Shown here one piece after another: positions 16,074-62,107 of a stretch of 64,000 nucleotides of DNA (its first letter is position 1; each line of letters begins with the position of its first letter). Position numbers and translations under genes: made by a program. Under the pieces are notes generated by a model that worked only from the letters and a program-made list of their open reading frames with translations, was not told the origin of the DNA and made no database searches. Source of the DNA: a virus; IMG/VR virus record IMGVR_UViG_3300035633_000651, positions 1 through 64,000 of that record, one strand, 5' to 3'.

Positions 16074-16202
16074 TACGCCGCGTTTGGTGGCGGAGCCGGA
16101 AGTGGTGTTGGCAACACGTTGCCAACGAGGTGGCCGGTCTTTGACAATCGAATACGATAAGCCAAACGCGGCCAGGCGTCGAGACGACGCTTGTGCCGCT
16201 CT

Positions 16203-16278
16203 AGGGTGAGCGCTCAGGCCGAGGGACGGCCACCGGATTCCAAACCCGGCGCAAGGGGTTCAACTCCTCCTCACCCTG
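16203..16278 (+). tRNA. tRNA-Trp(CCA)
   Basis: AGGGTGA/TCACCCT; loop TTCCAAA; atypical D arm. Confidence 0.75.
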
Positions 16279-16750: not shown

Positions 16751-16764
16751 CTCAGCACCATAAC

Positions 16765-16838
16765 GGGTTCGTAGCTAAATGGCGACAGCAGCTGGCTCTT
16801 AACCAGAAGATATGGAGGTTCGAGTCCTCCCGGACCCA
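16765..16838 (+). tRNA. tRNA-Lys(CTT)
   Basis: Cloverleaf; loop CTCTTAA. Confidence 0.9.
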
Positions 16839-16840
16839 AC

Positions 16841-16912
16841 GCGAAGTTGGTGCAACAGGTAGCATCTCAGGTTTCCACCCTGAAGACGTCGGTTCGAACC
16901 CGTCACTTCGCT
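16841..16912 (+). tRNA. tRNA-Gly(TCC)
   Basis: Cloverleaf; loop TTTCCAC. Confidence 0.9.
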
Positions 16913-17120
16913 CTTGACACGCACCGGCACACAAAACAGCATGTGGGCATGGCCCCAGAAACACGCTTCGCCATCTGCTCCAAAGACGGTCTGCACTTCG
17001 TCGTCGAGAATGTGGGGAGCGGGGAGTTCGACTTCCGTTCGGACCACATCCCAGACAACGAGCCCACGCCTGACATCAACACGGCGTGCGCTCGGTGCCG
17101 CCAGCTGATCGAGGCCGCAC

Positions 17121-17429
17121 GTGGCACGCACTAAGATCCTCGGCACGGACGCCGAGATGAAAGAAGTGCGTCGGCGGTACGAAGCGGGCGCAACTGTTCG
17201 TGAGGTCGCAGACGGGTTAGGCGTTTCCGTCACGCCAGTGCGAAGAGCGTTGCAACAAGCTGGAGCGAAGATACGCAAGCGCGGACGGCGCTCAGGCCCG
17301 GTCGATCCGGCCCGTGTGAAGACCTTTCAAGGTCTCCGAAACCGCGGCTGGACCTTCAACGAGATCGCCGAAGAGTACGGCCTTTCGCGGCAGGCTGTGC
17401 AGCAGTATTTGGCACAGCACGTGCAGTAG
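17121..17429 (+). CDS. Double HTH DNA-binding protein
   Basis: GATVREVADGLGVS and GWTFNEIAEEYGLSRQAV. Confidence 0.75.
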   Translation: MARTKILGTDAEMKEVRRRYEAGATVREVADGLGVSVTPVRRALQQAGAKIRKRGRRSGPVDPARVKTFQGLRNRGWTFNEIAEEYGLSRQAVQQYLAQHVQ

Positions 17430-17532
17430 CCTGCTGCATGTCAAGCAGCGGCCTTGCCAAGACCATGCGCGAGCAACGCGCGGCAGTCCTTGGCCAAGAA
17501 CGACAGCACGCCGAGCCTCTCCGAGGTGAAGC

Positions 17533-18099
17533 GTGAGGCGCCTTGTCATCGTCGAGTCCCCGTTCTCGGCCGACACGCCCGAGCTGTTCGCTCGGAACCT
17601 CCAGTACCTGAAGGCGTGCGTCCTGGACTGCCTCCAGCGAGGTGAGTCGCCCTACGCGAGCCACGGCTTCTTCCCGAACTTCCTGCACGACGCCAACGCG
17701 GAGGAGCGAGAGCTGGGCATGGACTGCGGCTTCGACGTCGGACACGCTTTCGCTGCGGCGGCGCGTGCGCGGCTGGAGGACAAGTGGCTGGCGGACGACG
17801 AGGCCTACGCGGAACAAAACCTGTCCACGCGTGCTGCTCAGGTCGTCTACACAGACCTCGGCATCAGCAGCGGCATGCAGCGAGGCGTCGAGGCGCTCGA
17901 CGGCATCTTGCCGCGCGAAGACCGTCAGCTCGGTGAAGACTGGGCGCGCTTGATCGAGGGCCGCGAGACCATCCAGCACATCAAGCTGGAGGAGCCTCAG
18001 GTCGACGGCGAGCTGCTCGAAGAGCTTCGCCGCACCGAGCGGCACGTCGGCAACGACGCCGCACTCGGTGCGGCCGTTCGCAAGCTCCTGAACACGTGA
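17533..18099 (+). CDS. Hypothetical phage protein
   Basis: VIVESPF...GESPYASH...DLGISSGM. Confidence 0.6.
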   Translation: MRRLVIVESPFSADTPELFARNLQYLKACVLDCLQRGESPYASHGFFPNFLHDANAEERELGMDCGFDVGHAFAAAARARLEDKWLADDEAYAEQNLSTRAAQVVYTDLGISSGMQRGVEALDGILPREDRQLGEDWARLIEGRETIQHIKLEEPQVDGELLEELRRTERHVGNDAALGAAVRKLLNT

Positions 18100-18128
18100 A
18101 CCTGTCGGCCTAGGCTGGGCCGACCACT

Positions 18129-18200
18129 GGGACTGTAGCTCTGTGGAGAGCAGCGGGCTTTTAACCCGAACGGAGATGGGTTCGACTCCCTCCGGTCCCA
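18129..18200 (+). tRNA. tRNA-Lys(TTT)
   Basis: Loop CTTTTAA; cloverleaf. Confidence 0.85.
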
Positions 18201-18202
18201 TT

Positions 18203-18286
18203 GGATGGTGCCAGCGGATAGGTCCGCGACCGGTGTCGAATACCGGGGGACGCCGAGAGGCGGGGGTTCGAATCCTACACCATCCG
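18203..18286 (+). tRNA. tRNA-Ser(CGA)
   Basis: Loop GTCGAAT; long variable arm. Confidence 0.8.
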
Positions 18287-18289
18287 AGC

Positions 18290-18363
18290 TGGGGCGTAGC
18301 TCAACAGGTAGCAGCGCCGGGCTTTGAACCCGGAGGTTGAGGGTTCGAGCCCCTCCGCCCCAT
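18290..18363 (+). tRNA. tRNA-Gln(TTG)
   Basis: Loop CTTTGAA. Confidence 0.9.
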
Positions 18364-18397
18364 CAGTCCTCGTCTTCGTGCATTTCCACCGATCCAC

Positions 18398-18469
18398 AGA
18401 GGTGTAGCACAACGGTGGTGCTCCCGGCTCTGAACCGGGCGGTTGCAGGTTCGAATCCTGCCACCTCTT
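18398..18469 (+). tRNA. tRNA-Gln(CTG)
   Basis: Loop CTCTGAA. Confidence 0.9.
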
Positions 18470-18513
18470 AGCTTGACTCCGTCCTGCGCGTCGGCGTTGA
18501 TGCGACTCGTCCT

Positions 18514-18585
18514 GCCGGCTTCAGCTAGCGGCTAAGCTGCGTGCCTTGTAAGCACGTCACGCCGGTTCGAGTCCGGCAGTCGGCT
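18514..18585 (+). tRNA. tRNA-Thr(TGT)
   Basis: Loop CTTGTAA. Confidence 0.85.
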
Positions 18586-18872
18586 GTCATGGGAAGAGAC
18601 AAGATACCCTCGGCACCAACCATCTACTCGTCGCAAGACCTCACATCTCAGGACCTGCCCACGGCAGTGGACACCGTGAAGCTGCAGGAAGACCAAGTGC
18701 TGATCACGATCAGTCGCCCGCTCACGCCACGTGGCGTGCAGCTCAACGCCGTCGCGAAGCCCAGCAAGGTGGGCGCGACCACGGCGGCGCTCATCAAGCT
18801 GGCACGCGAGCTGAAAGCCAACTCGCTCATCCAGCATTATATTGAAGATGCACTGAACACCTGACACTCCTT

Positions 18873-18945
18873 GGCCTCATCGTCTAATGGTTAGGATGAC
18901 GGATTTTCACCCCGTCGATGCTGGGTTCAATTCCCGCTGAGGCCA
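18873..18945 (+). tRNA. tRNA-Glu(TTC)
   Basis: Loop TTTTCAC. Confidence 0.85.
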
Positions 18946-18973
18946 GGGTCCTCGTCTCGACGAGGGCACCAAC

Positions 18974-19047
18974 GGCGCTGTAGTATAATGGTCTAGTACG
19001 CCGGATTCTCAATCCGGAAATCGTGAGTTCGATCCTCCGCAGCGTCA
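18974..19047 (+). tRNA. tRNA-Glu(CTC)
   Basis: Loop TTCTCAA. Confidence 0.85.
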
Positions 19048-19119
19048 TCCTCTCTAGCTATTCTGGGAAAGCAATCGGCTGTTAACCGACGAAGCAGGGT
19101 TCGATTCCCTGGGGAGGAG
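19048..19119 (+). tRNA. tRNA-Asn(GTT)
   Basis: Loop CTGTTAA. Confidence 0.9.
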
Positions 19120-19124
19120 CCAAC

Positions 19125-19197
19125 GACTCTGTGGCAGAATGGCAAATGCGCGCGGCTGCAACCCGCGTTTACGTCGGTTCGATTCCGACCGGAGTCT
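19125..19197 (+). tRNA. tRNA-Cys(GCA)
   Basis: Loop CTGCAAC. Confidence 0.9.
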
Positions 19198-19201
19198 TTC
19201 A

Positions 19202-19276
19202 CGGGATGTGGCTCAGTCTGGCTAGAGCGCTCGTCTGGGGGGCGAGAGACCGTCGGTTCGAATCCGGCCATCCCGA
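19202..19276 (+). tRNA. tRNA-Pro(GGG)
   Basis: Loop CTGGGGG. Confidence 0.9.
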
Positions 19277-19280
19277 TTTC

Positions 19281-19354
19281 ACCTCGGTAGACCAACTGGT
19301 AGAGTCAGCAGGTTGAGGGCCTGTCCAGTGTCGGTTCGAATCCGACCCGAGGTA
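19281..19354 (+). tRNA. tRNA-Leu(GAG), short variable loop
   Basis: Loop TTGAGGG. Confidence 0.85.
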
Positions 19355-19366
19355 TGCAGCATTGAC

Positions 19367-19442
19367 GTCCCTGTGGGCAATTTGGTAAAGCCGCTCGTCT
19401 CAGAAGCGAGAGATTTTGTGGGTTCGACTCCCTCCAGGGACA
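19367..19442 (+). tRNA. tRNA-Leu(CAG), short variable loop
   Basis: Loop CTCAGAA. Confidence 0.85.
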
Positions 19443-19889
19443 TGGAAACGAGACCTTGACGGTGATGCTGATGTGGTTCAAAACGCGAGCGGGCGATGAC
19501 GCCCCACCAACGTTGGCCTGCACGGCCGAAGGAACGTACCACATGCCTGCACCTGCACTGGTCCTCACCCGAGGCAACATCACCTACACCGCCGACCCCG
19601 TCGAGAAGGACGGCTTCCGCATCAACGCGAGCCTCTCCAGCCCCGCCGAGGGCGCGAACTGGGCCCTCTCGGTCTCGACGCAGCTCGTGGACGCAGCGGT
19701 CGTCGACGACAACGATGAGGCCGCTCGCTTCACCGCTTCGTCGCTGACGGTTCCCTTCAACGAGGCTCCGGACCTGGCTTCGGCCACGGCCAAGCTTCAG
19801 GCGCTCGTGGATCTGGTCTTCGACCAGTTCATCCCGGCTCAGGCGTCGATCTGACGCCCACGCGTCGCCCCGTCCTGGGGTGACGCCCT

Positions 19890-19956
19890 GCCCGCACCGA
19901 TGGACGGCAGACGCCCTGGTATGGCGTCGACGGCAGTTCGATTCTGCCTGTGGGCT
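19890..19956 (+). tRNA. tRNA-Thr(GGT), reduced D arm
   Basis: GCCCGCA/TGTGGGC; loop CTGGTAT. Confidence 0.7.
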
Positions 19957-20048
19957 GCGAGTAGCACCGCATCCTCTGGACACACGCGACGAAGGAGGCG
20001 CTGCGGGGTCAAACTGAGGCGCTCGCGAGCCTTGGGCGCTCACCCAAT

Positions 20049-20116
20049 GGAGCGTACAACAGGGTTGAGACCTGGTTGCTAGTCAGGTTGACTGAGTTCG
20101 AATCTCAGGCGCTCCG
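20049..20116 (+). tRNA. tRNA-Ser(GCT), atypical
   Basis: GGAGCGT/GCGCTCC; loop TTGCTAG; weak D arm, no long variable arm. Confidence 0.7.
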
Positions 20117-20157
20117 ACCTCTTGACATTTGCCGGGCGAGCCGCGCACGCTGTCTGT

Positions 20158-20760
20158 ATGACCGAGTACGGCACCGACGCTTGGTGGGACGAGTACCGCG
20201 AGTTCGCCTGGGAGTCTCTTCAGCGTCACCGTGACGCGTTCGAGCGGCTCATGTACATGGCGCCCTGGCATCTGTGCACCTACAACACGACCTTCGACCT
20301 AGGCGCAGGGCGTGCGGGTATCGGCTTCAATGTGGTACGGGCGAGTCATACAGTCCACTACGTCTCCTACGACGCCGACCCGAATGCCAAAGCTGACCAC
20401 TGCGTAGACTATCGGACGCTGTCTCGGCTCGAACCGCTTGACTCGCAGCCGTCCCCGATCACGATGGTGACGTCGTTCTTCTCGACCGAACTCACGGCAG
20501 GGCCGCACGCGAACCAGTCCTTCTACAGGCACCTGTTCAAGTGCAACCCCGAGCTGCAGACGATCGTCGTGGCAGGCATGTACTACGCCGACAAGGCCGA
20601 CCATCCCTCCGTGACGGAGACCGGCGGCATCGTCTCGTGGCAGTCCATCGGTCCGGTGCGCACCAACGAGACGCGTCTGCTCATCCCGGCGCCGTCGAAG
20701 ATGTTCGGCGAGACCGTCGTCGAGGTCTGGCGCCGCCTGGACCGCCCGGAGGACTTGTGA
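20158..20760 (+). CDS. Possible SAM-dependent methyltransferase-like protein
   Basis: FDLGAG motif; leaderless start after TTGACA promoter. Confidence 0.5.
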   Translation: MTEYGTDAWWDEYREFAWESLQRHRDAFERLMYMAPWHLCTYNTTFDLGAGRAGIGFNVVRASHTVHYVSYDADPNAKADHCVDYRTLSRLEPLDSQPSPITMVTSFFSTELTAGPHANQSFYRHLFKCNPELQTIVVAGMYYADKADHPSVTETGGIVSWQSIGPVRTNETRLLIPAPSKMFGETVVEVWRRLDRPEDL

Positions 20761-20951
20761 ATCCTTGGCTGATCACGTTCGGGGTTGTCTTCGGAGTGCT
20801 GAGCACGTGCGCGGTCGTCGCATATCTGGCGGTCTGGCTTGATGAGGACGGCGATTGACCTGGTTCGGCGAGTACTGGACGGACTGCGACAGTCCGCTGA
20901 ACAACGTCCGACACGGCGGACTCTGCAAGGTATGTGATCCGTGATCAATCA

Positions 20952-21024
20952 CGAGGTGAAGGCCCGGGGTGGGCCGCCTGGTTTGGGACCAGGACATCGG
21001 CAGGTTCGACTCCTGTCACCTCGA
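20952..21024 (+). tRNA. tRNA-Pro(TGG)
   Basis: Loop TTTGGGA. Confidence 0.85.
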
Positions 21025-21028
21025 TTCC

Positions 21029-21102
21029 CTGGGTGTGGTTCAATTTGGTAGAGCGCCTGGTTCGGGGCCAGGAGACTGTCGGTTCGAATCCGGCCACCCA
21101 GA
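21029..21102 (+). tRNA. tRNA-Pro(CGG)
   Basis: Loop TTCGGGG. Confidence 0.9.
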
Positions 21103-21187
21103 TTTCAGACACTTGCGCGGAGCGCGCAGGGAGGTGCGGGTAGCTCGCCTGGTGCACCGTAGGTGGGGACCAAGCCGTCTGAATTCT

Positions 21188-21263
21188 GCGCGCGTAGCCC
21201 AATTTGGTAGGAGGCAGCGGCTTCAAATCCCGTCCAGTGCCAGTTCGAATCTGGCCGTGCGCA
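21188..21263 (+). tRNA. tRNA-Leu(CAA), short variable loop
   Basis: Loop TTCAAAT; D arm and variable loop like Leu(GAG). Confidence 0.8.
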
Positions 21264-21884
21264 TCCTGACAGACCCTGCTAGACTCCGGAGGTGCCGAAC
21301 CAGCCTCCCAAGAACCGTCCGTTCTGGCAGACGGTCGTGCTTACGCTGGCCACCGGCCTGGGCGGTGCGACGGCGGCCTACTTCGGCGCCACTCAGAACC
21401 AACCCTCAGCGCAGACTGTGGCCGCTGTGGACGCCAAGCAGGACAAGACCTGGGAGGTGACCCACCTGCTCCTCCAGAACATCCTGAGCGACCAGGAGCG
21501 CCTCCAACGGCAGGTGACACGCCTGAACGAACTCTGTACTGAGGGCGCGCAGGAGACGCCCTTCGACGAGGTGGAGGTCCCTCACCGTGACGTGCCGGAC
21601 CACATCGAGGTCGAGCCCGAGGCGGTCCAACGCAAGCTGGAGTCCTACTGATGGCCTTCTCGGTCGGCGACGAGGTGCTCCTCGACGTCACGGTGACCGC
21701 CGGGACCGAGATCCTCACGGACGGCGACACCCGCACCTGGGCCTTGCGGAACCACCGCACGCGTCCAGTGCGCATTCTCAGTTTCTCAGGGGATACGGTT
21801 GAGGTAGAGTTCCTCGACGCTTTGGGGCCAGCGTTCGGCCCGGACGGTTTCTACCCGACGCGGTTTTTGAGACCTCCCGTCTAA

Positions 21885-21955
21885 GCGGGTGCGGTGTGAT
21901 GGTCGCATCTCAGCTTGCCATGCTGAAGGTGAGGGTTCGATTCCCTTCACCCGCT
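21885..21955 (+). tRNA. tRNA-Gly(GCC)
   Basis: Loop TTGCCAT. Confidence 0.9.
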
Positions 21956-22117
21956 CACTGCCTGCTCTCATTCGGTCAGCCTCGGCTGGTCGCATGACCA
22001 GGACCCCGACGACCGGTCGGGTGTGGAGTTTGACTCCGAGGCGCCACGCGTACGGGGCGCTAGGCGAGACGAAGTGTTGGGGACGCCCGCACGGAGAATC
22101 TCACCACCGGTCCACAT

Positions 22118-22189
22118 GCTGGTCTAGCCGTCTGGGACGGCAGTGGTCTCATAAGCCACTAGAGCTGAGTTCGATTCTCAGGTCCAGCA
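22118..22189 (+). tRNA. tRNA-Met/Ile2(CAT)
   Basis: Loop CTCATAA. Confidence 0.85.
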
Positions 22190-22191
22190 AC

Positions 22192-22264
22192 GCAGGAGTG
22201 GCTCAGCGGCTAGAGCAGCGCTTTCACACGGCGACGACCGAGGGTTCGAGTCCCTCCTTCTGCA
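22192..22264 (+). tRNA. tRNA-Val(CAC)
   Basis: Loop TTCACAC. Confidence 0.85.
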
Positions 22265-22266
22265 AC

Positions 22267-22339
22267 CCACCGCGACGGCCTGGTCGGCCTGCGGCGCCTG
22301 ATAAGCGCGGTGTTCGAGGTTCGATTCCTCGGCGGTGGA
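22267..22339 (+). tRNA. tRNA-Ile(GAT)
   Basis: Loop CTGATAA. Confidence 0.8.
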
Positions 22340-22379
22340 CCACTTGACACATGCCGGAGCTAGCTCCACTGTCGGCGGG

Positions 22380-22943
22380 ATGAACCCGACGCACCTGCAG
22401 ATTCGCATCGAGCAGTGCTTGGCATTGGCCAAGGCGAGTCACTGCCCTCGCCGGAAGTTCGCAGCGCTCCTGCTTGACCCGGAGCGTAACGTCGTCCTGA
22501 TGGACGGCTACAACGGCCCGCCCCGCGGCAAACAGAAGCTCTGCGCGCGACTCTCGAACGGGGTCGAGTTCTGCGAGCGCGACGGCCTCGACCCACTGGC
22601 GTTCGAAGTCGAAGACACGACCGCGTATCGGTACGAGCTGCTGGAGCGGTACCCAGGTGTGCCGTCAGGGACGCACTACGAGCTGGGCTGCCACCACGCA
22701 GAGCAGAACGTCATCTGCAACGCGGCGGCGAACGGCGTCCGGACCCGAGGCGCCTGGATGATTATCAACGGCGAGCCGTGCATCATCTGTGCGAAGCTCA
22801 TTCACCACGCCGGCATCACCAAAGTCATCTGTGTGGGCGGCGGCTTCCGCGGACCCAACGGACTCGACTACCTCGAAGGTCACGACGTCGAGGTCGAGCT
22901 GGTGGACGGTCCGAAAGACCCCAGGTCAAGCCAGCTCGGCTAG
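22380..22943 (+). CDS. dCMP deaminase
   Basis: SHCPRR, GYNG, HAEQN, PCIIC. Confidence 0.9.
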   Translation: MNPTHLQIRIEQCLALAKASHCPRRKFAALLLDPERNVVLMDGYNGPPRGKQKLCARLSNGVEFCERDGLDPLAFEVEDTTAYRYELLERYPGVPSGTHYELGCHHAEQNVICNAAANGVRTRGAWMIINGEPCIICAKLIHHAGITKVICVGGGFRGPNGLDYLEGHDVEVELVDGPKDPRSSQLG

Positions 22944-23672
22944 CGGCTTGACGTACTTGCCGTTCTTCGGGGGTGGAGGTAGCGCAGCCTCGGCCGTTGC
23001 AGCGAACCTCAGGCAGACCCACTCACCGACCCGTCCGGTCCCGCGCTGCCACCACAAATCGACCACAGAGCCGTCGCGAGCGACGAAGCGCGTGTCGGAA
23101 GGAACGAGCCCCTCAGGCTGTACGCCGTTCACGACTTGCGAGAAGCGGCGCGTGGCGCTGGGCACGTCCTCGACGAAGACGAAGTCGGTGAACAGGCGCC
23201 CCTCGATGCGCTCTGGCGTCGTGCGAAGCCAGTCCGCGAAGCACTGGTTGGCTTCTACTACGCGGCCTTGCCAGTCCACGTAGAGCATCCCGGTCGGAGC
23301 GCCCTGGAAGGTGTGGTGGTCACGCGCTGCGATGGCGCGCTCCGCATCAGCCCTGCGCAGCTCGCGCAAGACTTGGAAGGCCTCGACGATGCCGTCGTGC
23401 AGATGAAACAGGAAGTAGAAGGCGGTCCCTGCAGCCCAAGCCGCGGTCACCGTCTTGGCGGTCACGTGCACGAGCATCAAGTCGGGCCAGACCTGACGTC
23501 CCGCTGCGACGAGCTGGGTGACGCCGAAGAGCAGGACCAAGACCGAGAAGGCGGACCATGCGTGTTGAACGCTTCGACTGCCTTCGGGCAGGTAGCTTCG
23601 GATCGAGAGCAGTGCCGGCCCCATCAGGAGGCAAGACACAGCGAGCAGTAGGTGGCTGTAGAACAAGATCAT
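22926..23672 (-). CDS. 3-TM sensor domain plus PAS domain, no output domain
   Basis: Three hydrophobic helices; PAS-like FQGAPTGMLYVDWQGRVVEAN...RDGS. Confidence 0.7.
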   Translation of the reverse strand: MILFYSHLLLAVSCLLMGPALLSIRSYLPEGSRSVQHAWSAFSVLVLLFGVTQLVAAGRQVWPDLMLVHVTAKTVTAAWAAGTAFYFLFHLHDGIVEAFQVLRELRRADAERAIAARDHHTFQGAPTGMLYVDWQGRVVEANQCFADWLRTTPERIEGRLFTDFVFVEDVPSATRRFSQVVNGVQPEGLVPSDTRFVARDGSVVDLWWQRGTGRVGEWVCLRFAATAEAALPPPPKNGKYVKPLAELA

Positions 23673-24046
23673 CTTTCGCGGCGGTTGACGCGGTCGGCCA
23701 GTCGACGACGCGCAACCCTCTCCTCTTTCAGTCCCTCTTCGAGCCCGCGGATGTCGCGCTCGACCACATCGAGACGGCGGTCGGCGTGCACTTCCTTCAG
23801 CTCTTGGAACTGACCTTTCAGTTCTCCAACCTCTAGCGTCAAAACCTGAATCTCGCCGCGCAGCGTGAACACGATCGCAGCGGCGCCCACGACCATGCTA
23901 GCGAACCAGCCCAGCCCCTGGGCGTACTCCAGGTACGTCTTGAAGACGGCCCCCGCTGAGGGAGGTGTAGGGGCGCCGGTAGAGGTCACGTCCCGTAGCG
24001 TATCACCGCGGCACGGGGTGTGCATAGGTCGATTCGGGGTTGACAC
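23669..24046 (-). CDS. Membrane-anchored coiled-coil protein
   Basis: One TM helix then heptad repeats. Confidence 0.55.
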   Translation of the reverse strand: MSTPNRPMHTPCRGDTLRDVTSTGAPTPPSAGAVFKTYLEYAQGLGWFASMVVGAAAIVFTLRGEIQVLTLEVGELKGQFQELKEVHADRRLDVVERDIRGLEEGLKEERVARRRLADRVNRRER

Positions 24047-24079
24047 GACCCTGCTTTCTGGGCATCCTGCCCAAACTTT

Positions 24080-24151
24080 GGTGCCTGGTGCTCCGTGGTG
24101 GAGCAGCCGGTTGTGGGCCGGCCAGGGCGAGTTCGATTCTCGTCAGGTACC
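24080..24151 (+). tRNA. tRNA-His(GTG)
   Basis: Loop TTGTGGG; G-1 and C73. Confidence 0.85.
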
Positions 24152-24226
24152 CTCGCTGGACCGAAGCACGACGGTTATCGCTCATGCCGACTCCCCCGTC
24201 ACTGCATCACCTTGTTCGGCAATTTT

Positions 24227-24299
24227 GGGACTGAAGTCTACTGGGTGGACGCTCCACTGTCTCTGGAGAATGAGGCGAGTTCGATTCTCGTCGGTCCCG
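24227..24299 (+). tRNA. tRNA-Asp(GTC)
   Basis: Loop CTGTCTC; G73. Confidence 0.85.
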
Positions 24300-24302
24300 T
24301 GT

Positions 24303-24377
24303 CGCGGAGTAGACTGGACGGGATCCAGCACCGGTCTCATAAGCCGGCCTATGCAGGTTCGAATCCTGCCTCCGCTA
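24303..24377 (+). tRNA. tRNA-fMet-like (CAT)
   Basis: C1 unpaired with position 72; loop CTCATAA. Confidence 0.85.
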
Positions 24378-24379
24378 AC

Positions 24380-24453
24380 GGCTGAGTAGCTCAGATGGTA
24401 GAAGCGGCGGTCTGAAGAATCGCGCGTCGGGGGTTCGAGTCCCTCCTCAGCCA
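24380..24453 (+). tRNA. tRNA-Phe(GAA)
   Basis: Loop CTGAAGA. Confidence 0.9.
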
Positions 24454-24917
24454 ACCTCCTCACGTCATGGACGACCTACAAGTCACGGCGCAGGCCAAAC
24501 ACAGCACCTCCTCAACGAAACGAGAAGAAGCGCCCGAGGTCGACGAGGGTGCCGCCAATGGGGTGCTTGACATGATGGCTGCAGCCGGCGCACGGGTAGA
24601 TGAAGAGCTTCGGACCGACGAGCGACTCGCCTGGGACAAGCTCGGCATCAAGCCGAAGAGGAGACGAAAGAATGCCCGCACATCTCGGTGATGGAACCTG
24701 CCTCGAAGAGACCCGCGATGCCATCCACGTTCACGTGTGGCCGAACGGGCGCACGCAGGCTGGCGACTACAAGACCTGGATCCCGAAGTCGGTCATCGCT
24801 GACGACTCGGACGTGGCAGCGAAGAACGACGTCGGCGACATCTTCGTCCGAACGTGGTTTGCTGAAAAAGAGGGCTTGCCACACACCTGAGCCTGTGCCA
24901 GGCTCACGACGCACGAC

Positions 24918-24990
24918 GCGCGACTGGCTGTACTGGAGTGCACGCTGTCTTGACACGGCAGAGGTCGAGGTTCGATTCCTCGGTTGCGCA
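24918..24990 (+). tRNA. tRNA-Val(GAC)
   Basis: Loop TTGACAC. Confidence 0.85.
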
Positions 24991-25000
24991 TGGGGAACCG

Positions 25001-25064
25001 AAGAGTACTTGGTTATCGCTTTTTTGGAACAAAAGGCCGGGCGGTTCGATTCCGTCATTCGTCG
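25001..25064 (+). tRNA. Atypical or degenerate tRNA-Ser(GGA)
   Basis: CTTTT-TTGGAAC-AAAAG; GGCGG-TTCGATT-CCGTC; no D stem. Confidence 0.5.
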
Positions 25065-25131
25065 CACCCGAAAGGGTAAAGATGGTTCTGGTCGCGACAA
25101 TCTCCGAGTCTCATAACTTGTTCTTCACTTT

Positions 25132-25203
25132 GGGCTGATGGTGAAACTGGGATCACACCTGCCTTGCAAGCAGGAATCCGGGGTTCGAATCCCCGTCGGT
25201 CCA
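25132..25203 (+). tRNA. tRNA-Ala(TGC)
   Basis: Loop CTTGCAA; G3:U70. Confidence 0.92.
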
Positions 25204-25205
25204 AC

Positions 25206-25336
25206 GCGAACCGAAGAAGATGGGTTACCGATGAACATCCGGGTGTCGCGAGGTGGAACTCCTCGCCAGCAGCTCAGGCTGCTGTAGCTCAGCACGAGAG
25301 CACCGGACCTGTGTTCCACTTCGTTCACTTGTTCGC
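25206..25336 (+). ncRNA. YrlA-like Y RNA (circularly permuted tRNA-like domain)
   Basis: Order is T arm, loop-closed acceptor hairpin, D arm, all within a closing stem. Confidence 0.75.
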
Positions 25337-25361
25337 TACTAATTCCCTGAACCGAAGACTT

Positions 25362-25433
25362 GCTCGGTTGGTGCAGTGGCTAGCATTCGCCTTTCGTAAG
25401 GGTGCGACGAGGGTTCGAGTCCCTCACCGAGCT
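25362..25433 (+). tRNA. tRNA-Thr(CGT)
   Basis: Loop TTCGTAA. Confidence 0.85.
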
Positions 25434-25480
25434 TCGAGGCTGCGCGCATCTTGTCTCGACCCGCGCGCAGCCTCGAATCT

Positions 25481-25553
25481 GCCCCTGTAGCATAATTGGA
25501 AGTGCACAGAGCTACGAACTCTGGTTGTGTCCGTTCGAGTCGGGCCGGGGGTG
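25481..25553 (+). tRNA. tRNA-Arg(ACG)
   Basis: Loop CTACGAA. Confidence 0.9.
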
Positions 25554-25606
25554 CAGGCTCGAACGCCCGAGCGTGGTAGGCGTGACAGTCGGAGAGACGA
25601 CACTTT

Positions 25607-25679
25607 GCCCGTGTAGCTCAGTGGAAGAGAGCGCAGGCCTCCGAAGCCTGGAGCGCTGGTTCGAGTCCAGCCACGGGTG
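25607..25679 (+). tRNA. tRNA-Arg(CCG)
   Basis: Loop CTCCGAA. Confidence 0.9.
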
Positions 25680-25683
25680 CTCT

Positions 25684-25755
25684 GCCCCTGGGGCGCACCG
25701 GAGCGCAGCCGGACTTCTAATCCGGTCCTAGCAGGTTCGAATCCTGTCGGGGGTG
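25684..25755 (+). tRNA. tRNA-Arg(TCT)
   Basis: Loop CTTCTAA. Confidence 0.85.
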
Positions 25756-25793
25756 CTTGACAAATTCCGTGGCTTGTCGTATTCGTCCCGCTC

Positions 25794-37925: not shown

Positions 37926-38297
37926 GTGAGTAGACTGGGGGAGTCATGCAGCGACCTTGCCCTTGCGCCTGAACCTGACCCCGTCACGCACTACTGCGTA
38001 GTCGACGGCACCCTGCCTCACGGAGTGCAGGCCGCGCAGCTCATCCACGCCGCCGGCGAGTCCGGCCCTGCTGAACCCGGTACCTACGCCGTCGCGCTCG
38101 CTGCGACCCCACGACAACTCGACGCCCTGCGCGCCCGTCTCTTCGAGGAGGAGGTGCCCTGCGTCTGTATCTGCGAAGCGGACCCTCCCTGGGACGGCGC
38201 CCTGATGGCCATCGGCCTGAAGCCCGCTCCAAAGAGCCAGGTGCGCCGTTTCGTGTCCCAGCTTCCTCTGGTAGGCAAGGAGGTGGCCCCAACCTAG
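37926..38297 (+). CDS. Pth2-family peptidyl-tRNA hydrolase-like protein
   Basis: GVQAAQLIHA, E.D......AIGLKP, LPL; start uncertain. Confidence 0.65.
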   Translation: MSRLGESCSDLALAPEPDPVTHYCVVDGTLPHGVQAAQLIHAAGESGPAEPGTYAVALAATPRQLDALRARLFEEEVPCVCICEADPPWDGALMAIGLKPAPKSQVRRFVSQLPLVGKEVAPT

Positions 38298-38306
38298 TTC
38301 GTCCAC

Positions 38307-38355
38307 GTGGCGGGCTGTTGGGGCCGTCAGGGAGGTTCGACTCCTCCCCGCCGCA
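38307..38355 (+). ncRNA. Minimal tRNA-like element (acceptor stem plus T arm)
   Basis: GTGGCGG/CCGCCGC-A; GGAGG-TTCGACT-CCTCC; only 17 nt between. Confidence 0.5.
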
Positions 38356-38407
38356 TTCGGGATCCGGTCAGCCCGGTCAGAGAGCTGCAGACTCTCCCCG
38401 AAACCAA

Positions 38408-38482
38408 GCGTCGGTAGCTCAGTGGTAGAGCGCCGTGGACTAAGGCCCCCGGAGGTCGCAGGTTCAAACCCTGCCCGACGCA
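38408..38482 (+). tRNA. tRNA-like RNA with abnormal 20-nt anticodon arm
   Basis: Canonical acceptor, D and T arms; arm CCGTGGACTAAGGCCCCCGG. Confidence 0.7.
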
Positions 38483-38529
38483 AACCAACCCCTTGACGGT
38501 CGGCCGACATCTGCCGAACGCTGTCGGGC

Positions 38530-38709
38530 GTGGCTCCCAAGCTCTGGCCTCACCAGCAGGCCGCCGTTGACGCGGTCAAGAAGACCCTTCGCCGTGCCGA
38601 CAGGTGCTGCGTGTTCTCTGCAACCGGCACCGGCAAGACCCGCACTGAACTCGAAGTCATGTCGCCGCGCAATCGGCGCAAGGTCATCGTCTTGGATGCC
38701 CAGCAATAA
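38530..38709 (+). pseudogene. Truncated SF2 helicase N-terminus (59 aa)
   Basis: LWPHQQAAVDA (Q motif), ATGTGKT (Walker A), then stop. Confidence 0.7.
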
Positions 38710-38760
38710 ATTCTGAAAGTTCTGAGTTCTGACACTTGACAACCACCCAACGTTGTCAGG

Positions 38761-40770
38761 ATGATACTCGAAGTCGGGTGGGAACCCGGCGCGTGGAGCT
38801 GCTGCGTAGGCAGGGAGCGGAAGCGCAAGGTCTACGGACCGAAGCAGATGGATATGATTGAATGCGTTTCGAGTGCGGCTGACCCGGCGTCTGAGGACGG
38901 ACGCCGGGTCAGCTACCTACCTTGCACTGCCTGCGGCACGAAGCAGCACCCCAAGCGACTGCGTAACGACGTGTGCCAGCAGTGCCGGACCCGTACAGGA
39001 GGACAGGTCGTCCGGGCCTACCGATACCGACTGTATCCGACACCCGCACAAGCCGCGCAGCTCGCTCGGGCGGGCGAGATGTCACGCCAGCTCTGGAATT
39101 ACCTCGTGCGAGATGCGGTCGACGTCGCGCGCACGGAGTCGCGCGTGGCGCGCAAGCACTACGCCCGATGGCACGCACGTCACCCCGACGTGGAAAAGAT
39201 GCCGAAAAAGGTCAAGTCTTCGATCTCTGAGCGGGCGAAGAAGGTATGCATCCGTGTGCATGGGCACGACTGGCGGGAGCCTCTGCGGAACCTGCCGCCT
39301 ATGGGCGAGATCACCTCGGCGCTGAGGGCACAGCGTCCCTGGTGGGGGCTGCCTGGCAACATGTCCAACGCGGTGCTTCAAACTGCCCAAGACGCGGTCA
39401 AGAAGAGCCGCCCACCGCGCATGAAGCGTCGAGGTCGGTTCGGGGAGCTGACTCTGCCTGGTCCTACGAACGGTGCGAAGGACTTGGTGCTCGACGAGCG
39501 CGACCCGCGGACTGCCTGGCTCACGGTGCCGAACGCACACCTCAAACTCAAAAAAGGTAAGCGTGTAGAGGACCAGGCGGTCACTGGGAACGTGCGGGCG
39601 AAGCGGCATCGTCCGCGCGTAGAGGACCAGGCGGTCGCCGGGAACGTGCGAGTGCTGCTGCATCGTCCGCTACCGCCTGATATCATTCACGACGAGGGCA
39701 AGCCGGCGGTGCGTCGTGTGGCGTTGGTGCACGAGGCGGGGGCTTGGTACGTCAGCGTGACGTACGAGTATGTCGCGCCTGGACGCGATGTCGCGCCCGA
39801 CCGCGCGTTGATTTGCGGCGTCGACCGCAACATGGCCACTAATCTGTGCACCTTCAGCTGTCCCGTCGGGCCTGTCGTGTACCAGGACGGTACACAGCCG
39901 GAGTCGCTCAGCGCCCCCTGGACGGACCCCTATATGGTGCCGTACCTTGTCTACACCGCAGAAGAGCGGAAGGCGGCGGCGCGCCGTGACGCGCACGCTC
40001 GCCGCATCGCGCGTCTTGTTGCGCGCACGCACCTGGACAAGGCGGCACGCGCGAGCGCGATCAACACCCACAAGTGGGGCCGCCGGTCGCGCGGCGAAGA
40101 CGACCCCGGGCAGCCGAAGTCGAAGCGTTGGGCCGCATCCGACAAAGCTGCAACCAAAGCTGCCGACCGTGGCGCGCGCAACCGCAAAGAAGTTCGGCGC
40201 CTGGTGGCCGACCGGTTGACGTACCACTGCCGCATCGTAGTCTTCGAGGCGCTCGACGCGCGGCAAATGATGGCGCGGACTCCAGGTGCGGGCGCAGGCG
40301 GGCGTGGACGGAACCGGAAGCAGGCGACCCAAGGCTGGGGTGACCTGCGCCTGCAGACGGAGTCTTCTGCCCAATTGCGTGACACGTTGGTCATCGAGGT
40401 GCCGTCTGCTTACACGTCGCAGACGTGCGCTGAGTGCGGGCACCCCGACTCGGCGTCGCGGCAGGACCAAGCCACATACGTGTGCACCGCCTGCGGACAC
40501 ACCGACAACGCGGACCGCAACGCCGCTCGGAACATCGAGCACCGCGGAGCGGCACTGCTCTCTGCGCCTATCGAGCTGGTGCGCGCCGCGCAAAGCCCGA
40601 AGAAAACCAAGACGGGGGCGGCCAAGGACCTGCAGACGCTGCTGTACGCTTGCGAGCGGCTCAGTGCCGCCGAAAAGGCCGACCTCGCTCGCGCCCCAAA
40701 GTGGGCGCAATCCTGGGCACTTAGCTACTTGAAGCGCGTCGCAGCTGACCACAAGGCCCGCAGCAACTAG
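38761..40770 (+). CDS. TnpB-derived type V (Cas12-like) RNA-guided nuclease; true start probably 38848/38854 or 38971
   Basis: RAYRYRLYPT; RuvC-I GVD, RuvC-II VFE, TSQTCxxCG..CxxCG Zn ribbon, RuvC-III NADRNAARNI; adjacent array. Confidence 0.9.
   Translation: MILEVGWEPGAWSCCVGRERKRKVYGPKQMDMIECVSSAADPASEDGRRVSYLPCTACGTKQHPKRLRNDVCQQCRTRTGGQVVRAYRYRLYPTPAQAAQLARAGEMSRQLWNYLVRDAVDVARTESRVARKHYARWHARHPDVEKMPKKVKSSISERAKKVCIRVHGHDWREPLRNLPPMGEITSALRAQRPWWGLPGNMSNAVLQTAQDAVKKSRPPRMKRRGRFGELTLPGPTNGAKDLVLDERDPRTAWLTVPNAHLKLKKGKRVEDQAVTGNVRAKRHRPRVEDQAVAGNVRVLLHRPLPPDIIHDEGKPAVRRVALVHEAGAWYVSVTYEYVAPGRDVAPDRALICGVDRNMATNLCTFSCPVGPVVYQDGTQPESLSAPWTDPYMVPYLVYTAEERKAAARRDAHARRIARLVARTHLDKAARASAINTHKWGRRSRGEDDPGQPKSKRWAASDKAATKAADRGARNRKEVRRLVADRLTYHCRIVVFEALDARQMMARTPGAGAGGRGRNRKQATQGWGDLRLQTESSAQLRDTLVIEVPSAYTSQTCAECGHPDSASRQDQATYVCTACGHTDNADRNAARNIEHRGAALLSAPIELVRAAQSPKKTKTGAAKDLQTLLYACERLSAAEKADLARAPKWAQSWALSYLKRVAADHKARSN
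38845..38913 (+). ncRNA. Anti-repeat plus 14-bp hairpin (3' part of candidate tracrRNA)
   Basis: 26/29 match to reverse complement of CRISPR repeat; stem 38878-38891/38900-38913. Confidence 0.75.
39562..39669 (+). repeat. 54-bp in-frame tandem duplication inside the nuclease
   Basis: RVEDQAVTGNVRAKRHRP / RVEDQAVAGNVRVLLHRP. Confidence 0.9.
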
Positions 40771-40827
40771 GCCCGCGCGCAATCGAAGAAAAAAGACCCA
40801 TGACATCCAACACTTACACCCCCGCCT

Positions 40828-41309
40828 CCCGAAACGCACTCACTCATATCCATCTGTTGCCACATCGGAAGGATAGTACGGACAGCCTGCCCTCCGGGGC
40901 CGCCCGAAACGCACTCACTCATATCCATCTGTTGCCACAAACCGTCGCCAAAGAACTTCTTCATCCGGGGCGCGAAGACCCGAAACGCACTAACTCATGT
41001 CCATCTGTTGCCACCACCCTGCGAGCACCAGAGCCGCCCGGCGCGGGTCCGTCCCGAAACGCACTCGCTCATATCCATCTGTTGCCACAAGACAGCGCGG
41101 GCGACACGCTTTCACATACGACCCACCCCGAAACGCACTCACTCATATCCATCTGTTGCCACCCAATAGTGGAGCGCGCTCCACGTGAGGTCCTCGACCC
41201 CGAAACGCACTCACTCATGTCCATCTGTTGCCACCCCGTCCAGGCTAACGGAGCTGAGATGCTCCGAATCGCCCCCGAAACGCCCTCAGTCGGGTCTATC
41301 TGGAGCCAC
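40828..41309 (+). CRISPR. CRISPR array, 7 x 36-nt repeats and 6 spacers (39, 40, 38, 38, 36, 39 nt)
   Basis: CCCGAAACGCACTCACTCATATCCATCTGTTGCCAC at 40828, 40903, 40979, 41053, 41127, 41199; degenerate copy at 41274. Confidence 0.97.
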
Positions 41310-41727
41310 TCGTAGTGCGCCGGCGGGACTTCATCGCCCTCGGGCTGGAGTTCTGCCGGCCGCGAGAGGCTGTCCTGATGTGGGTCGGAGGGCTTCAGGG
41401 CTGGCGCCCTCGCAGGACCCTGACCGACGGCGACCTCATCCGGCCGGCCGGCGTCCTCCGCGCACGCGTCGTGACGGCCCACGGCTGGCACGGCTTCTTG
41501 AACGGCTGCTTGACCCACCATGAGGACTGGGGGCAATACTGCATGCGGACGTTTCGCGGGGACGGCTGGGTGATGCCGTCCACGTCGAAGGCGGGCCGCG
41601 CGACCATCGACGTGGTCGGGGACGTGCAGAACGCGCATCGGTTCCCTGGACGCGTTCGCTATCTGCGGGTGCCCAAGAAGGAGTGGACCTCCTTCCAGTG
41701 CGCTCCCTACGCCGTGAGGATTCTTCG

Positions 41728-42309
41728 ATGACTGGCAACGTCTGGTTCACGTCCGACATCCACTTCGGACACAAGCGGATCCTGGAGCTGACCGACCGAG
41801 GCAAGCGGTGGAGCCACGTCGAGGACATGGACGAGGACCTCATCCGCACGTTCAACGAGCTGGTCCGTCCCGGCGACCGGGTCTACCACCTGGGCGACTT
41901 CAGCTTCGCCTCGAATGAGCGGACGAAGAAGATCAAGCGGCGTCTGATGGGCGAGTGGCACTGGGTGCTCGGGAACCACGACAACAGCAAGGACAGGGAC
42001 CTCTACGCCATGTTCCAGTGGGTGGGCGACTATCGTCGTGTCAAGCTCGACGCCCAGGCGATCGTCCTCTTCCACTACCCCATCATGAGCTGGCACGGGA
42101 TGCACAAAGGCGCCTGGCACCTGCACGGGCACTGCCACGGAAACCTCACCGAGGCCTGCCGTGCCTGCGGGACGCCGTTCAAGGCGCTGCGCCTCGACGT
42201 CGGCATCGACAATCATCCCTACGACTTCCGCCCCTTCAGCTACGAGGAAGTTCGCCAGCACATGCGAACGGTGGGCACGTCGACCACCACGGCGCCTAGG
42301 CTCGGGTGA
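41728..42309 (+). CDS. Phage metallophosphoesterase
   Basis: FTSDIHFGH, HLGD, GNHD, HYP, HGHCH, DVGID. Confidence 0.9.
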   Translation: MTGNVWFTSDIHFGHKRILELTDRGKRWSHVEDMDEDLIRTFNELVRPGDRVYHLGDFSFASNERTKKIKRRLMGEWHWVLGNHDNSKDRDLYAMFQWVGDYRRVKLDAQAIVLFHYPIMSWHGMHKGAWHLHGHCHGNLTEACRACGTPFKALRLDVGIDNHPYDFRPFSYEEVRQHMRTVGTSTTTAPRLG

Positions 42310-60555: not shown

Positions 60556-61177
60556 ACGCACGTCAGGAAGCACTGGCCGAACTGAAGGCCAAGCAGGACA
60601 AAGAGCGCGCCAAGTTGGAGCGCGAGTACAACATTCGGGAGCAGCTGCCCGAGGGCGCAGAGCCGCGCTTCGTGACGACGGTCAGCGGCCGGGTCTTCGT
60701 GACCTACGAGGTCGACACCTTCGAGGAGGCCTGGCAGGTCCTAGACCTCTACGAGCTGCTCGACTGCGAGGCACGCGAGTCTGGATGCCTGAGCATCGCA
60801 CCGCCCGAGGCGCAGGACCCGAGCTACCAGAACGGTCGCCTTCGCTGGAAGCTGCCTGAGATGGTCGAGCTGTGCTCCCACGGCGGCTCGGGCTACAGCC
60901 CGACCTTCGAGGTGGGCGGCTACGGCAAGCACGGCGACCTGGTGGTCAACCTCACGGTCAAGGTCGCGAAGGCGGCCTACGGGCTGCACGCGTACCAGCC
61001 GATGCGTCACACGCTGTGGGGTCCAGAGAACGACGGTCCGGTCCGTCACAGCCCGCTGAAAAGCACAACGACCTACCACGTCAAGTGGGGCGGAGGGACG
61101 CCAGGGTCGCACCGCTGCAGCTACTACGTCTCGGGGACGCAGCAGGCGCAGGAAGCCGTCGAGGCGGCCCTGAAGCT

Positions 61178-62107
61178 ATGAACAAGTGGCCAGGCATCGA
61201 GTCGTTGAAGCACGTCACCAAGTACGTGCGTAAGTGCACGCCCTACGCGCGGGTGCACTACTACGCGAAGGTGAAACTGCACGGCACCAACGCGGGTGTT
61301 GCCCGCCTGCAAGATGGCACGTTGCAGGCTCAGTCGCGGTCCCGCGTCATCACGCCCGAAGACGACAACCAGGGCTTCGCGGCCTGGCTTCGCGACAACA
61401 CCGGCCGCTTCTTGAAGTGCCCGAGCGGCGTTACTGTGTTCGGTGAGTGGTACGGTCAAGGGATCATGAAAGGCACTGCAGCGTCACAGGTCGAAGGTAG
61501 GCACTTCGCCCCCTTCGCGGTCATGGGCGCAGGTCGCATCGACCCAAGTCCGGCTTTGTGCCGTGCGTGGTCGGGCTGCGACAGCCTACCCTGGGCCGCT
61601 TCGCTAGCCGTCGACTTCAATGACGTCGAGGCGTCTCGTGGGACATTGGAGAGGCTGCTTCAAAAGGTCGAAGCAGAAGACCCGTTTATCCTGGCACTGC
61701 ACGGCGTCAAGGGCCTGGGCGAGGGGCTCGTGTTCTACCCGCAGCTTGCAGACTCGGGCGACGTGCCTGCGCCAGAACATTACGCGAACATGATCTTCAA
61801 GCTGAAGGGCGACAAGCACAAGGTGAAGGCGACCAAACAGAAGGTCGAGCTGGCACCCGAGGCGATTGCGAGTCGGAAGGCGTTCGCCGAGGCCTTCGTC
61901 ACCGACGCACGCCTCGACCAGTGCCTCGGTGAGCTGGGCGTGAGTCGTGACACGTTCGAGATGCACCAGACGGGTGATGTCATGCGCTGGATGTCGACGG
62001 ACATCCAGAAAGAGTCGGTGCAGGAGCTGGAAGAGTCCGGCATGACCTGGAAGGATGTGGTGTCCGAAACGCAACGCGCTGTGCGTGAGAAGTTGAGAGG
62101 ACTCTGA
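61178..62107 (+). CDS. RNA ligase 2-like protein
   Basis: KLHGTN, QSR, FGEWYG, GEGLV, FKLK. Confidence 0.85.
   Translation: MNKWPGIESLKHVTKYVRKCTPYARVHYYAKVKLHGTNAGVARLQDGTLQAQSRSRVITPEDDNQGFAAWLRDNTGRFLKCPSGVTVFGEWYGQGIMKGTAASQVEGRHFAPFAVMGAGRIDPSPALCRAWSGCDSLPWAASLAVDFNDVEASRGTLERLLQKVEAEDPFILALHGVKGLGEGLVFYPQLADSGDVPAPEHYANMIFKLKGDKHKVKATKQKVELAPEAIASRKAFAEAFVTDARLDQCLGELGVSRDTFEMHQTGDVMRWMSTDIQKESVQELEESGMTWKDVVSETQRAVREKLRGL

Follow-up and report, generated by a model that had tools for sequence, protein, structure and literature searches.

The first 64 kb of the 109,677-bp IMG/VR record IMGVR_UViG_3300035633_000651 (this 64,000-nt stretch is hereafter the window) contain, at 38736-41309, a compact locus in which a gene for a TnpB-family nuclease carries a 27-nt anti-repeat over its probable start and is followed by a CRISPR array (Table 1). 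We think it probable that this locus encodes a working miniature type V-like CRISPR system that is TnpB-like, depends on a tracrRNA (trans-activating CRISPR RNA), lacks adaptation genes and resides on a high-GC myovirus. Two attributes of a type V system are present, namely a RuvC effector descended from TnpB and an adjacent array with unique spacers, here 57 bp downstream. The general kind of system has already been published; what looks unusual is an anti-repeat placed over the start codon in combination with an N-terminal zinc ribbon, both in a high-GC phage lineage that is very rare.

Judged by its genes, the virus is a tailed phage, a high-GC (64%) myovirus, as the tail sheath and baseplate genes and the 33 tRNA-type genes (ARAGORN; one atypical) support, and in this it agrees with an earlier reading of the window made from its letters alone (the sequence-only reading). 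Its genes encode a tail sheath, a baseplate wedge protein, a tail-terminator-like protein, a minor-head-like protein, a dNMP kinase, a phosphoesterase and two RNA ligases. Cas1, Cas2, Cas4, Y1 TnpA (Y1_Tnp) and resolvase genes, reported by that reading (for cas1/cas2/cas4 and TnpA) to be lacking from the window, are lacking from the whole 109,677-bp record (66% complete by CheckV estimate), so the system appears to be adaptation-less and not an active insertion sequence (IS), bearing in mind that the record may lack a third of the genome. The effector is present in a single copy on the record.

The effector, the array and a putative tracrRNA

The open reading frame (ORF) that contains the effector gene runs from 38761 to 40770 on the + strand (669 codons). 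Its product matched the Pfam families HTH_OrfB_IS605 (residues 85-117, spanning the motif RAYRYRLYPT) and Cas12f1-like_TNB (65.4 bits), and it passed the NCBIfam guided_TnpB model NF040570 (122.8 bits versus a cut-off of 100), whereas all subtype-specific Cas12 models of NCBIfam fell far under their own cut-offs. The IS605 OrfB-type N-terminus, the three RuvC acidic residues and the zinc ribbon noted in the sequence-only reading were confirmed by Pfam and by an alignment of 103 sequences (Table 1, in which D326, E467 and D556 are counted from the ATG at 38848).

A HMMER search of 1.84 billion representative proteins returned thousands of TnpB matches over the C-terminal third, and only three full-length relatives: P0003, which is 45% identical to the effector, and P0005 and P0056, which are about 30% identical. 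All three share the motif ERLSA.E.A.LARA, and P0005 and P0056 have the N-terminal zinc ribbon. No family member was found in IMG/VR scanned with the family alignment and with P0005 and P0056, in a genome-contig scan, or among 401 sampled Actinomycetota genomes searched with the N-terminal half of the effector; two metagenome scans and a viral scan with P0003 likewise found nothing. What the IMG/VR, contig and Actinomycetota searches and word-based protein searches did bring up was confined to ordinary TnpBs or array-linked TnpB-like genes of no relation to the family (L017, L057 and others), and the ESM Atlas gave only generic long TnpB clusters. By these sequence searches, the protein lineage is very rare. 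In a FastTree phylogeny of 120 TnpB-like sequences, from which named Cas12 references are absent and which therefore cannot show independent origin, the effector grouped with P0003 (support 99) and both with P0005 and P0056 (support 96), the four-member clade standing apart from the included array-linked and V-U4-like sequences.

The core of the effector is, in its AlphaFold model (predicted local distance difference test score, pLDDT, 74; predicted template modelling score, pTM, 0.72), a TnpB fold. The best structural match was ISDra2 TnpB (Z 19.4, root-mean-square deviation 3.1 A, 327 of 341 residues aligned), which fits the sequence-only description of a very TnpB-like effector and answers the structure-prediction check that it had proposed; Fanzor2, ISFba1 TnpB, Cas12m, Cas12p, Cas12f and LaTranC followed at Z 14-18, and CasLambda, CasPhi and the resolved half of RdCas12n at Z of about 11-12. 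Some 230 residues are added to this core: CxxC-x14-CxxC at the N-terminus, an enlarged helical REC, an insertion in WED that holds the tandem duplication, two low-confidence insertions in RuvC and the helical tail. Where a structural match spans most of the model, it begins near model residue 50, leaving the N-terminal ribbon outside the matched part. That ribbon aligns with CQTC...CQTC in P0005 and C..C...CQQC in P0056, its C43 and C46 are shared without exception by the four family members, and relatives with only 30% identity still conserve the segment (CTACGTKQHP...CQQC) as protein. The tail helices are predicted at residues 575-639 (pLDDT 45-68), and the DNA that encodes them, folded as RNA together with the leader (40560-40830), has no excess structure (z = +0.78). 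Ribbon and tail had both been singled out as extra segments from the sequence, and both proved to be conserved in the few relatives. The tandem duplication in the WED region is recent; the closest relative, P0003, has a single copy, and residues 231-263 are of low pLDDT.

The public gene call (P0001, 563 aa) starts at 39079, at residue 107, and loses the conserved first WED strand; on this comparison it starts too late and cuts off a conserved N-terminus. Because the CxxC...CxxC segment is conserved and there is no in-frame ATG, GTG or TTG between 38857 and 38923, translation should begin at or before 38854, most likely at ATG 38848 or 38854, two codons that the anti-repeat contains. A further ATG, at 38761, falls within the promoter-like site.

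The array is as the sequence-only reading described it, with seven repeats and unique spacers just past the ORF. Three repeats share one sequence; two others depart from it at one position, another at two and the last at eight. This degenerate last repeat (41274-41309) lies at the far end, which places the leader on the cas side and points to + strand transcription from the side of the gene; no separate promoter or terminator was detected in the leader. The spacers are 55-79% GC, similar to the 64% of the phage. On its own the repeat is unstructured (-0.1 kcal/mol), which argues against a tracr-independent system. A search of IMG/VR with the 3' 19-mer of the repeat gave two chance matches only, inside coding DNA.

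Upstream of the array, and at the other end of the gene, lies the anti-repeat already seen in the sequence-only reading, for which dinucleotide shuffles of the window give a chance expectation of 0.00 matches. Its duplex with the repeat has a predicted energy of -42.7 kcal/mol, against a background of -16.7 +/- 4.3 kcal/mol for 60-nt windows, and in a scan of 38300-40840 only the three windows that hold the whole anti-repeat reached about -42 kcal/mol, the best elsewhere being -29.2 kcal/mol. There is no anti-repeat between the RuvC-III codon and the array (40513-40827), where complementarity to the repeat (-18.2 kcal/mol) is at background. The surrounding segment, 38766-38925, folds on the + strand at -81.5 kcal/mol (z = -5.9; none of 200 shuffles was as stable), and when it was co-folded with repeat and spacer the hairpins were retained while the anti-repeat paired with the repeat. 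The 5' end of the anti-repeat pairs with the spacer-proximal part of the repeat, so that the + strand reads scaffold, anti-repeat, then repeat and guide, which is the order of scaffold, anti-repeat, repeat and guide in omegaRNA and type V single-guide RNAs. No Rfam family matched the region. Just 5' of it is a promoter-like site agreeing with the sigma-70 consensus at 10 of 12 positions, the sole such match on either strand of 38300-41800 (mean of 0.3 in shuffles). With an unstructured repeat, a single strong anti-repeat and the right + strand topology, the system looks tracrRNA-dependent, much as the sequence-only reading had suspected, and the position of the helper RNA over the start codon of the effector looks unusual.

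Table 1. Features of the CRISPR locus, with positions counted in the window.
Feature	Position	Strand	Basis
Promoter-like site (TTGACA, 18 nt, GATGAT), predicted transcription start near 38771-38773	38736..38765	+	consensus match only
Putative tracrRNA, 5' part of effector mRNA	38771..38913	+	three 5' hairpins, anti-repeat and 17-bp terminal hairpin (38877-38913); RNA ends inferred
Anti-repeat, 27 nt, pairs with repeat positions 3-29	38845..38871	+	25/27 complementary; spans in-frame ATGs 38848 and 38854
Effector gene, TnpB-family RuvC nuclease, ~640 aa	38848..40770	+	Pfam, NCBIfam and PADLOC matches, AlphaFold model; alternative starts 38854, 38761
Extra N-terminal zinc-ribbon motif CTAC-x14-CQQC	38923..38985	+	before first WED strand; aligned in relatives
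In-frame tandem duplication, 54 nt (18 aa, RVEDQAV.GNVR....HRP)	39561..39668	+	two copies, 85% identity, WED region
RuvC-I aspartate D326 (GVDRN)	39823..39825	+	invariant, 103-sequence alignment
RuvC-II glutamate E467 (VVFE)	40246..40248	+	invariant, 103-sequence alignment
TNB zinc ribbon (CAEC...CTAC)	40426..40494	+	C527, C530 and C546 invariant, C549 in at least 90% of 103 sequences
RuvC-III aspartate D556 (NADRNAA)	40513..40515	+	invariant, 103-sequence alignment
C-terminal tail, ~66 aa, predicted helical	40570..40767	+	ERLSA.E.A.LARA motif kept in P0003, P0005 and P0056
Leader, 57 bp, stop codon to first repeat	40771..40827	+	read from sequence
CRISPR array, 7 repeats of 36 nt and 6 unique spacers of 36-40 nt	40828..41309	+	read from sequence

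Proposed mechanism and alternatives

Transcription, RNA ends, processing, a PAM (protospacer-adjacent motif), cleavage and biological targets we infer from the DNA. A promoter near 38736 would give a + strand transcript whose first ~140 nt fold into a scaffold containing the anti-repeat and would at the same time supply the effector's start codon and its first ~22 codons. A short transcript ending at the 38877-38913 hairpin would be the tracrRNA, and read-through would yield the effector mRNA and, 57 bp past its stop codon, the precursor of the CRISPR RNAs (pre-crRNA). The anti-repeat would pair with positions 3-29 of each 36-nt repeat and, after processing, the ~640-aa protein would be loaded with tracrRNA:crRNA, the guide at the 3' end, whereupon its RuvC site would cut matching DNA. 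The phage alone would be unable to acquire new spacers, and the targets could possibly be rival mobile elements or host genes. Going further, we can tentatively picture a distinct, unnamed type V lineage, marked by the N-terminal ribbon and the helical tail, in which the tracrRNA was carved from the 5' end of the effector mRNA and pairing with crRNA repeats autoregulates translation of the nuclease; taken as a whole, this fuller picture is rather unlikely.

Among the alternatives, we give most room, though still short of an even chance, to the view that the system works as described and belongs to a lineage already catalogued, either one of V-U6 to V-U45 (Altae-Tran et al. 2023) or one of the TranC clades (Jin et al. 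2025). Roughly 50 TnpB-to-Cas12 origins have been published, mostly array-only and with a downstream array as here (PMC10691335), TranC clades 11 and 20, some of them from phage genomes, resemble the effector by their description (10.64898/2026.03.27.714800), and the best solved match of the family profile is RdCas12n. Membership would nevertheless have to accommodate a family with three relatives only in 1.84 billion proteins and none in IMG/VR, the scanned contigs or the 401 Actinomycetota genomes, a LaTranC as distant as Z 14.6 and 16% identity, and a start-codon anti-repeat unlike the layouts described in those papers, which have the tracrRNA between the final RuvC residue and the array; a singleton lineage could also miss the threshold of at least two CRISPR-linked clusters used in those studies. 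A different question is whether the anti-repeat, whose 27 nt of complementarity span both candidate ATGs in a very stable duplex and which is itself most likely translated, is mainly a cis-regulatory element through which repeats of crRNA or pre-crRNA throttle translation of an effector that uses crRNA without tracrRNA. We find this improbable, as the repeat cannot form the hairpin or pseudoknot gripped by tracr-independent type V effectors, a protein so TnpB-like is expected to require a long RNA scaffold, and the sole structured RNA candidate at the locus contains the anti-repeat, there being none towards the gene's 3' end. Regulation would, moreover, not preclude tracr function.

The chance is similarly small that the locus is an inactive relic, a TnpB, domesticated or in decay, whose array is a fossil: the frame remains open for 640 codons and retains every catalytic residue and zinc ligand, its G+C content at third codon positions (GC3, 0.77) is within the range of the phage genes, three repeats are still identical and the anti-repeat is still complementary at 25 of 27 positions. 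The degenerate last repeat and the spacers without a target in phages, plasmids, the phage's own record or the 401 Actinomycetota genomes would suit a relic, but they are also what active arrays normally show; one or two substitutions in three of the six other repeats, the recent 54-nt duplication inside the gene and the lack of an adaptation module fit decay as well. Less probable still is transcription of both array and helper RNA from the - strand, which would make the helper antisense to the 5' end of the effector. Complementarity is symmetric and 38766-38925 folds well on that strand too (-65.7 kcal/mol, z = -5.0), yet the + strand fold is 16 kcal/mol more stable, the distal position of the degenerate repeat makes the leader adjoin the gene, the only promoter-like site is upstream on the + strand, and on the - strand a single hairpin alone would stand 5' of the anti-repeat, a mismatch with the order of type V scaffolds.

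Several observations weigh against the preferred reading of a working, tracrRNA-dependent and adaptation-less system. The spacers matched nothing above chance in the phage's own record, in phages, plasmids and fetched loci or in the 401 Actinomycetota genomes; with no protospacer found, there is no PAM to infer and no proof of spacer use, and the suggestion in the sequence-only reading that the system serves against competing mobile elements gained no support. The putative promoter is a sigma-70 consensus match only, and the terminal hairpin of the proposed tracrRNA has no U-tract. The start codon is not settled either: relative P0003, as called, begins past the first CxxC, the equivalent start here would be GTG 38971, and translation from there would free the anti-repeat from coding. 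Finally, adaptation genes could sit on the absent third of the genome.

Surroundings of the locus

Searches of a phage collection and of IMG/VR found no close relative of the phage, and none was found through its neighbouring phosphoesterase. Most amino acids are covered by a cluster of 32 tRNA genes within 10 kb (16002-25756, +), and RNA-ligase genes lie at 14669-15715 (+; phrog_24030, 385 bits) and 60872-62107 (+; phrog_548, 148 bits); with a PTH2-like ORF at 37926-38297, these amount to a sizeable translation and tRNA-repair toolkit. The phage also encodes a Ro60 orthologue at record positions 67075-68706 (Pfam TROVE 143 bits, vWA_Ro60 191 bits). An atypical 'tRNA-???' with an anticodon loop of 8 nt (38408-38482) is enclosed by a long-range stem (~38322-38334 with 38489-38501), and Rfam gave a weak partial match to YrlA (Y RNA-like) at 38331-38431 (E 0.13). 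Together with Ro60, the stem and tRNA-like module (38322-38501, +) look like a phage Y RNA, just 5' of the CRISPR locus.

Between that module and the effector, a 59-aa ORF (38530-38709, +) corresponds to the N-terminal Walker-A part only of a ResIII/DEAD-type helicase (Pfam ResIII 29.9 bits; PHROG DNA helicase), its stop codon 26 bp 5' of the promoter-like site. This may be a gene remnant from a rearrangement at the locus. Insertion of the locus into a helicase gene was considered and rejected, there being no matching helicase remainder 3' of the array, and recent horizontal acquisition, judged by composition, was rejected too on the GC3 of the effector. On the other side, a 138-aa ORF (41315-41731, +) whose GC3 is very high (0.87) begins 6 bp past the degenerate terminal repeat and has no match in Pfam or PHROG.

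Two further candidate phage-borne mini type V loci came from unrelated low-GC viral contigs, IMGVR_UViG_3300001533_002564 (L017; 5941-8129, array of nine repeats) and IMGVR_UViG_3300005265_000303 (L057; 565-2541, array of seven repeats). Their TnpB/Cas12f-like effectors are of ~440-460 aa and the arrays follow within 200-300 bp.

Comparison with known systems

TnpB has given rise to type V effectors repeatedly, and the decisive event is believed to be the splitting of omegaRNA into tracrRNA and crRNA. With ISDra2 TnpB (PDB 8EXA / 8H1J), its best structural match, the effector shares the order WED-REC-RuvC-TNB, the catalytic triad and a pass in the guided_TnpB model, but it is longer by ~230 aa, as the N-terminal ribbon, the larger REC, the WED and RuvC insertions and the helical tail make it. 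In contrast to IS200/IS605 TnpBs, it is found in single copy with no TnpA or resolvase on a record that is ~66% complete; no omegaRNA-like structure is present at the 3' end, and an array of six spacers replaces the single fixed guide. A standard OMEGA TnpB (IS200/IS605 or IS607) was thus rejected for want of both the transposon context and the 3' omegaRNA.

Among solved structures, the profile built from the four family sequences matched RdCas12n best (PDB 9J09; E 2.5e-27, 99 bits, essentially full length in one stretch that pairs profile positions 39-508 with chain positions 12-499), although TnpBs reached 78-93 bits and the score was also only slightly above that of Cas12f. Cas12n is the effector of type V-N, formerly V-U4 or C2c9, and is distinguished by a tracrRNA that lies inside the ORF, near its 3' end, where a disordered C-terminal tail is encoded (PMC12216341); it acts as a monomer and uses a 5'-AAN PAM. 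Like the system proposed here, it is TnpB-like, tracr-dependent, of actinobacterial-type high GC and without adaptation genes, with a tracrRNA that overlaps the effector ORF, and the PADLOC Cas12u4 profile was the top or near-top match for all four family members. That profile, however, gave the effector 75 bits and its relatives 78-130 bits, whereas ordinary multi-copy TnpBs of one Actinomadura genome scored 211-252 bits over most of it (two shorter pieces, 131-133 bits). In Cas12n the tracrRNA is at the 3' end; here that end has neither anti-repeat nor RNA structure, the tail it encodes is conserved and predicted to be helical, and the anti-repeat covers the start codon, at the opposite (5') end. 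The N-terminal ribbon, furthermore, is outside the part matched by 9J09, and the structural Z is 11.3 on 257 resolved residues. Two results thus argue against membership in Cas12n (V-N/V-U4), the low Cas12u4 score relative to ordinary TnpBs and the lack of a tracrRNA within the 3' part of the ORF.

The remaining candidates (Cas12p, Cas12f, Cas12m, LaTranC, CasPhi and CasLambda) were all more distant in sequence. Cas12p, the 'Cas12 hacker' (PDB 9JFS), is a phage-encoded, tracr-dependent protein of 500-700 aa without adaptation genes, regarded as an early intermediate between TnpB and Cas12, and carries a thioredoxin-binding domain (10.1101/2025.01.20.633832). In phage origin, size, lack of adaptation genes and, on the reading proposed here, tracr-dependence it is like the effector, and the folds match at Z 16.4, but the sequences are similar only in the RuvC/TNB part (phmmer E 7.5e-4, residues 430-598; profile E 2.9e-17, RuvC half); without full-length similarity, membership was rejected. 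Cas12f, also miniature and tracr-dependent, was the best single-sequence match to solved chains (E 3.7e-12) and provided the top Foldseek matches, yet the match consists of ~70 residues of TNB and RuvC-III, Cas12f is dimeric, and its tracrRNA lies beside the array. Membership was again rejected, as the NCBIfam Cas12f2 model NF049972 gave 38.7 bits over 54 residues against a cut-off of 450 and the PADLOC Cas12f profiles gave at most 78 bits and were non-specific. Cas12j (CasPhi) and CasLambda are likewise phage-borne type V systems without adaptation genes, but they are tracr-independent, larger and structurally farther (Z 11-12).

The same concept is met in the TranCs, TnpB-like nucleases with short arrays and a guide split into tracrRNA and crRNA, some of them phage-borne, whose clades were defined by Jin et al. 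(Cell 2025) according to two sources (PMC13565253; 10.64898/2026.03.27.714800) and number more than 20 in the literature. Clades 11 and 20, as characterized in the latter source, have an expanded REC/WED, a structured, elongated C-terminal domain and 36-38-bp repeats, 3-17 per array (10.64898/2026.03.27.714800), features that by their descriptions resemble those found here. LaTranC itself (PDB 9JFO/9JFQ) is distant (profile E 7e-16), and the tracrRNAs described for TranCs lie between effector and array, not over the start codon. In a survey of JGI and NCBI data, Altae-Tran et al. (2023) counted ~50 independent TnpB-to-Cas12 origins and forty branches named V-U6 to V-U45, for the most part array-only systems with the array downstream of the gene (PMC10691335), which is also the arrangement here.

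By sequence and by model, then, the effector lies outside every subtype with a hidden Markov model (HMM) or solved structure compared here. The proposal in the sequence-only reading of an independent, undescribed TnpB-to-Cas12 transition is nevertheless not supported as worded, given the many origins, V-U* branches and TranC clades already in print, to one of which the effector may belong. Were the effector to fall within a listed V-U* or TranC clade, the value of the locus would be that of one further instance. As it stands, the locus contributes, from a high-GC myovirus, a nuclease that is very TnpB-like yet larger. If functional, it would be one more case of a phage carrying an adaptation-less CRISPR module, would enlarge the set of compact candidate RNA-guided nucleases of GC-rich background by one of ~640 aa, and might allow a simple feedback of guide RNAs on nuclease synthesis. 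It would also represent a second way for guide scaffold and coding sequence to share DNA, with the helper-RNA segment over the start codon of the gene and not behind the gene as in TnpB, Cas12n, Cas12f and TranC; in the reading as an unnamed lineage, its tracrRNA, set in the 5' end of the ORF, would mirror the omegaRNA of TnpB and the tracrRNA of Cas12n, which are set in the 3' end.

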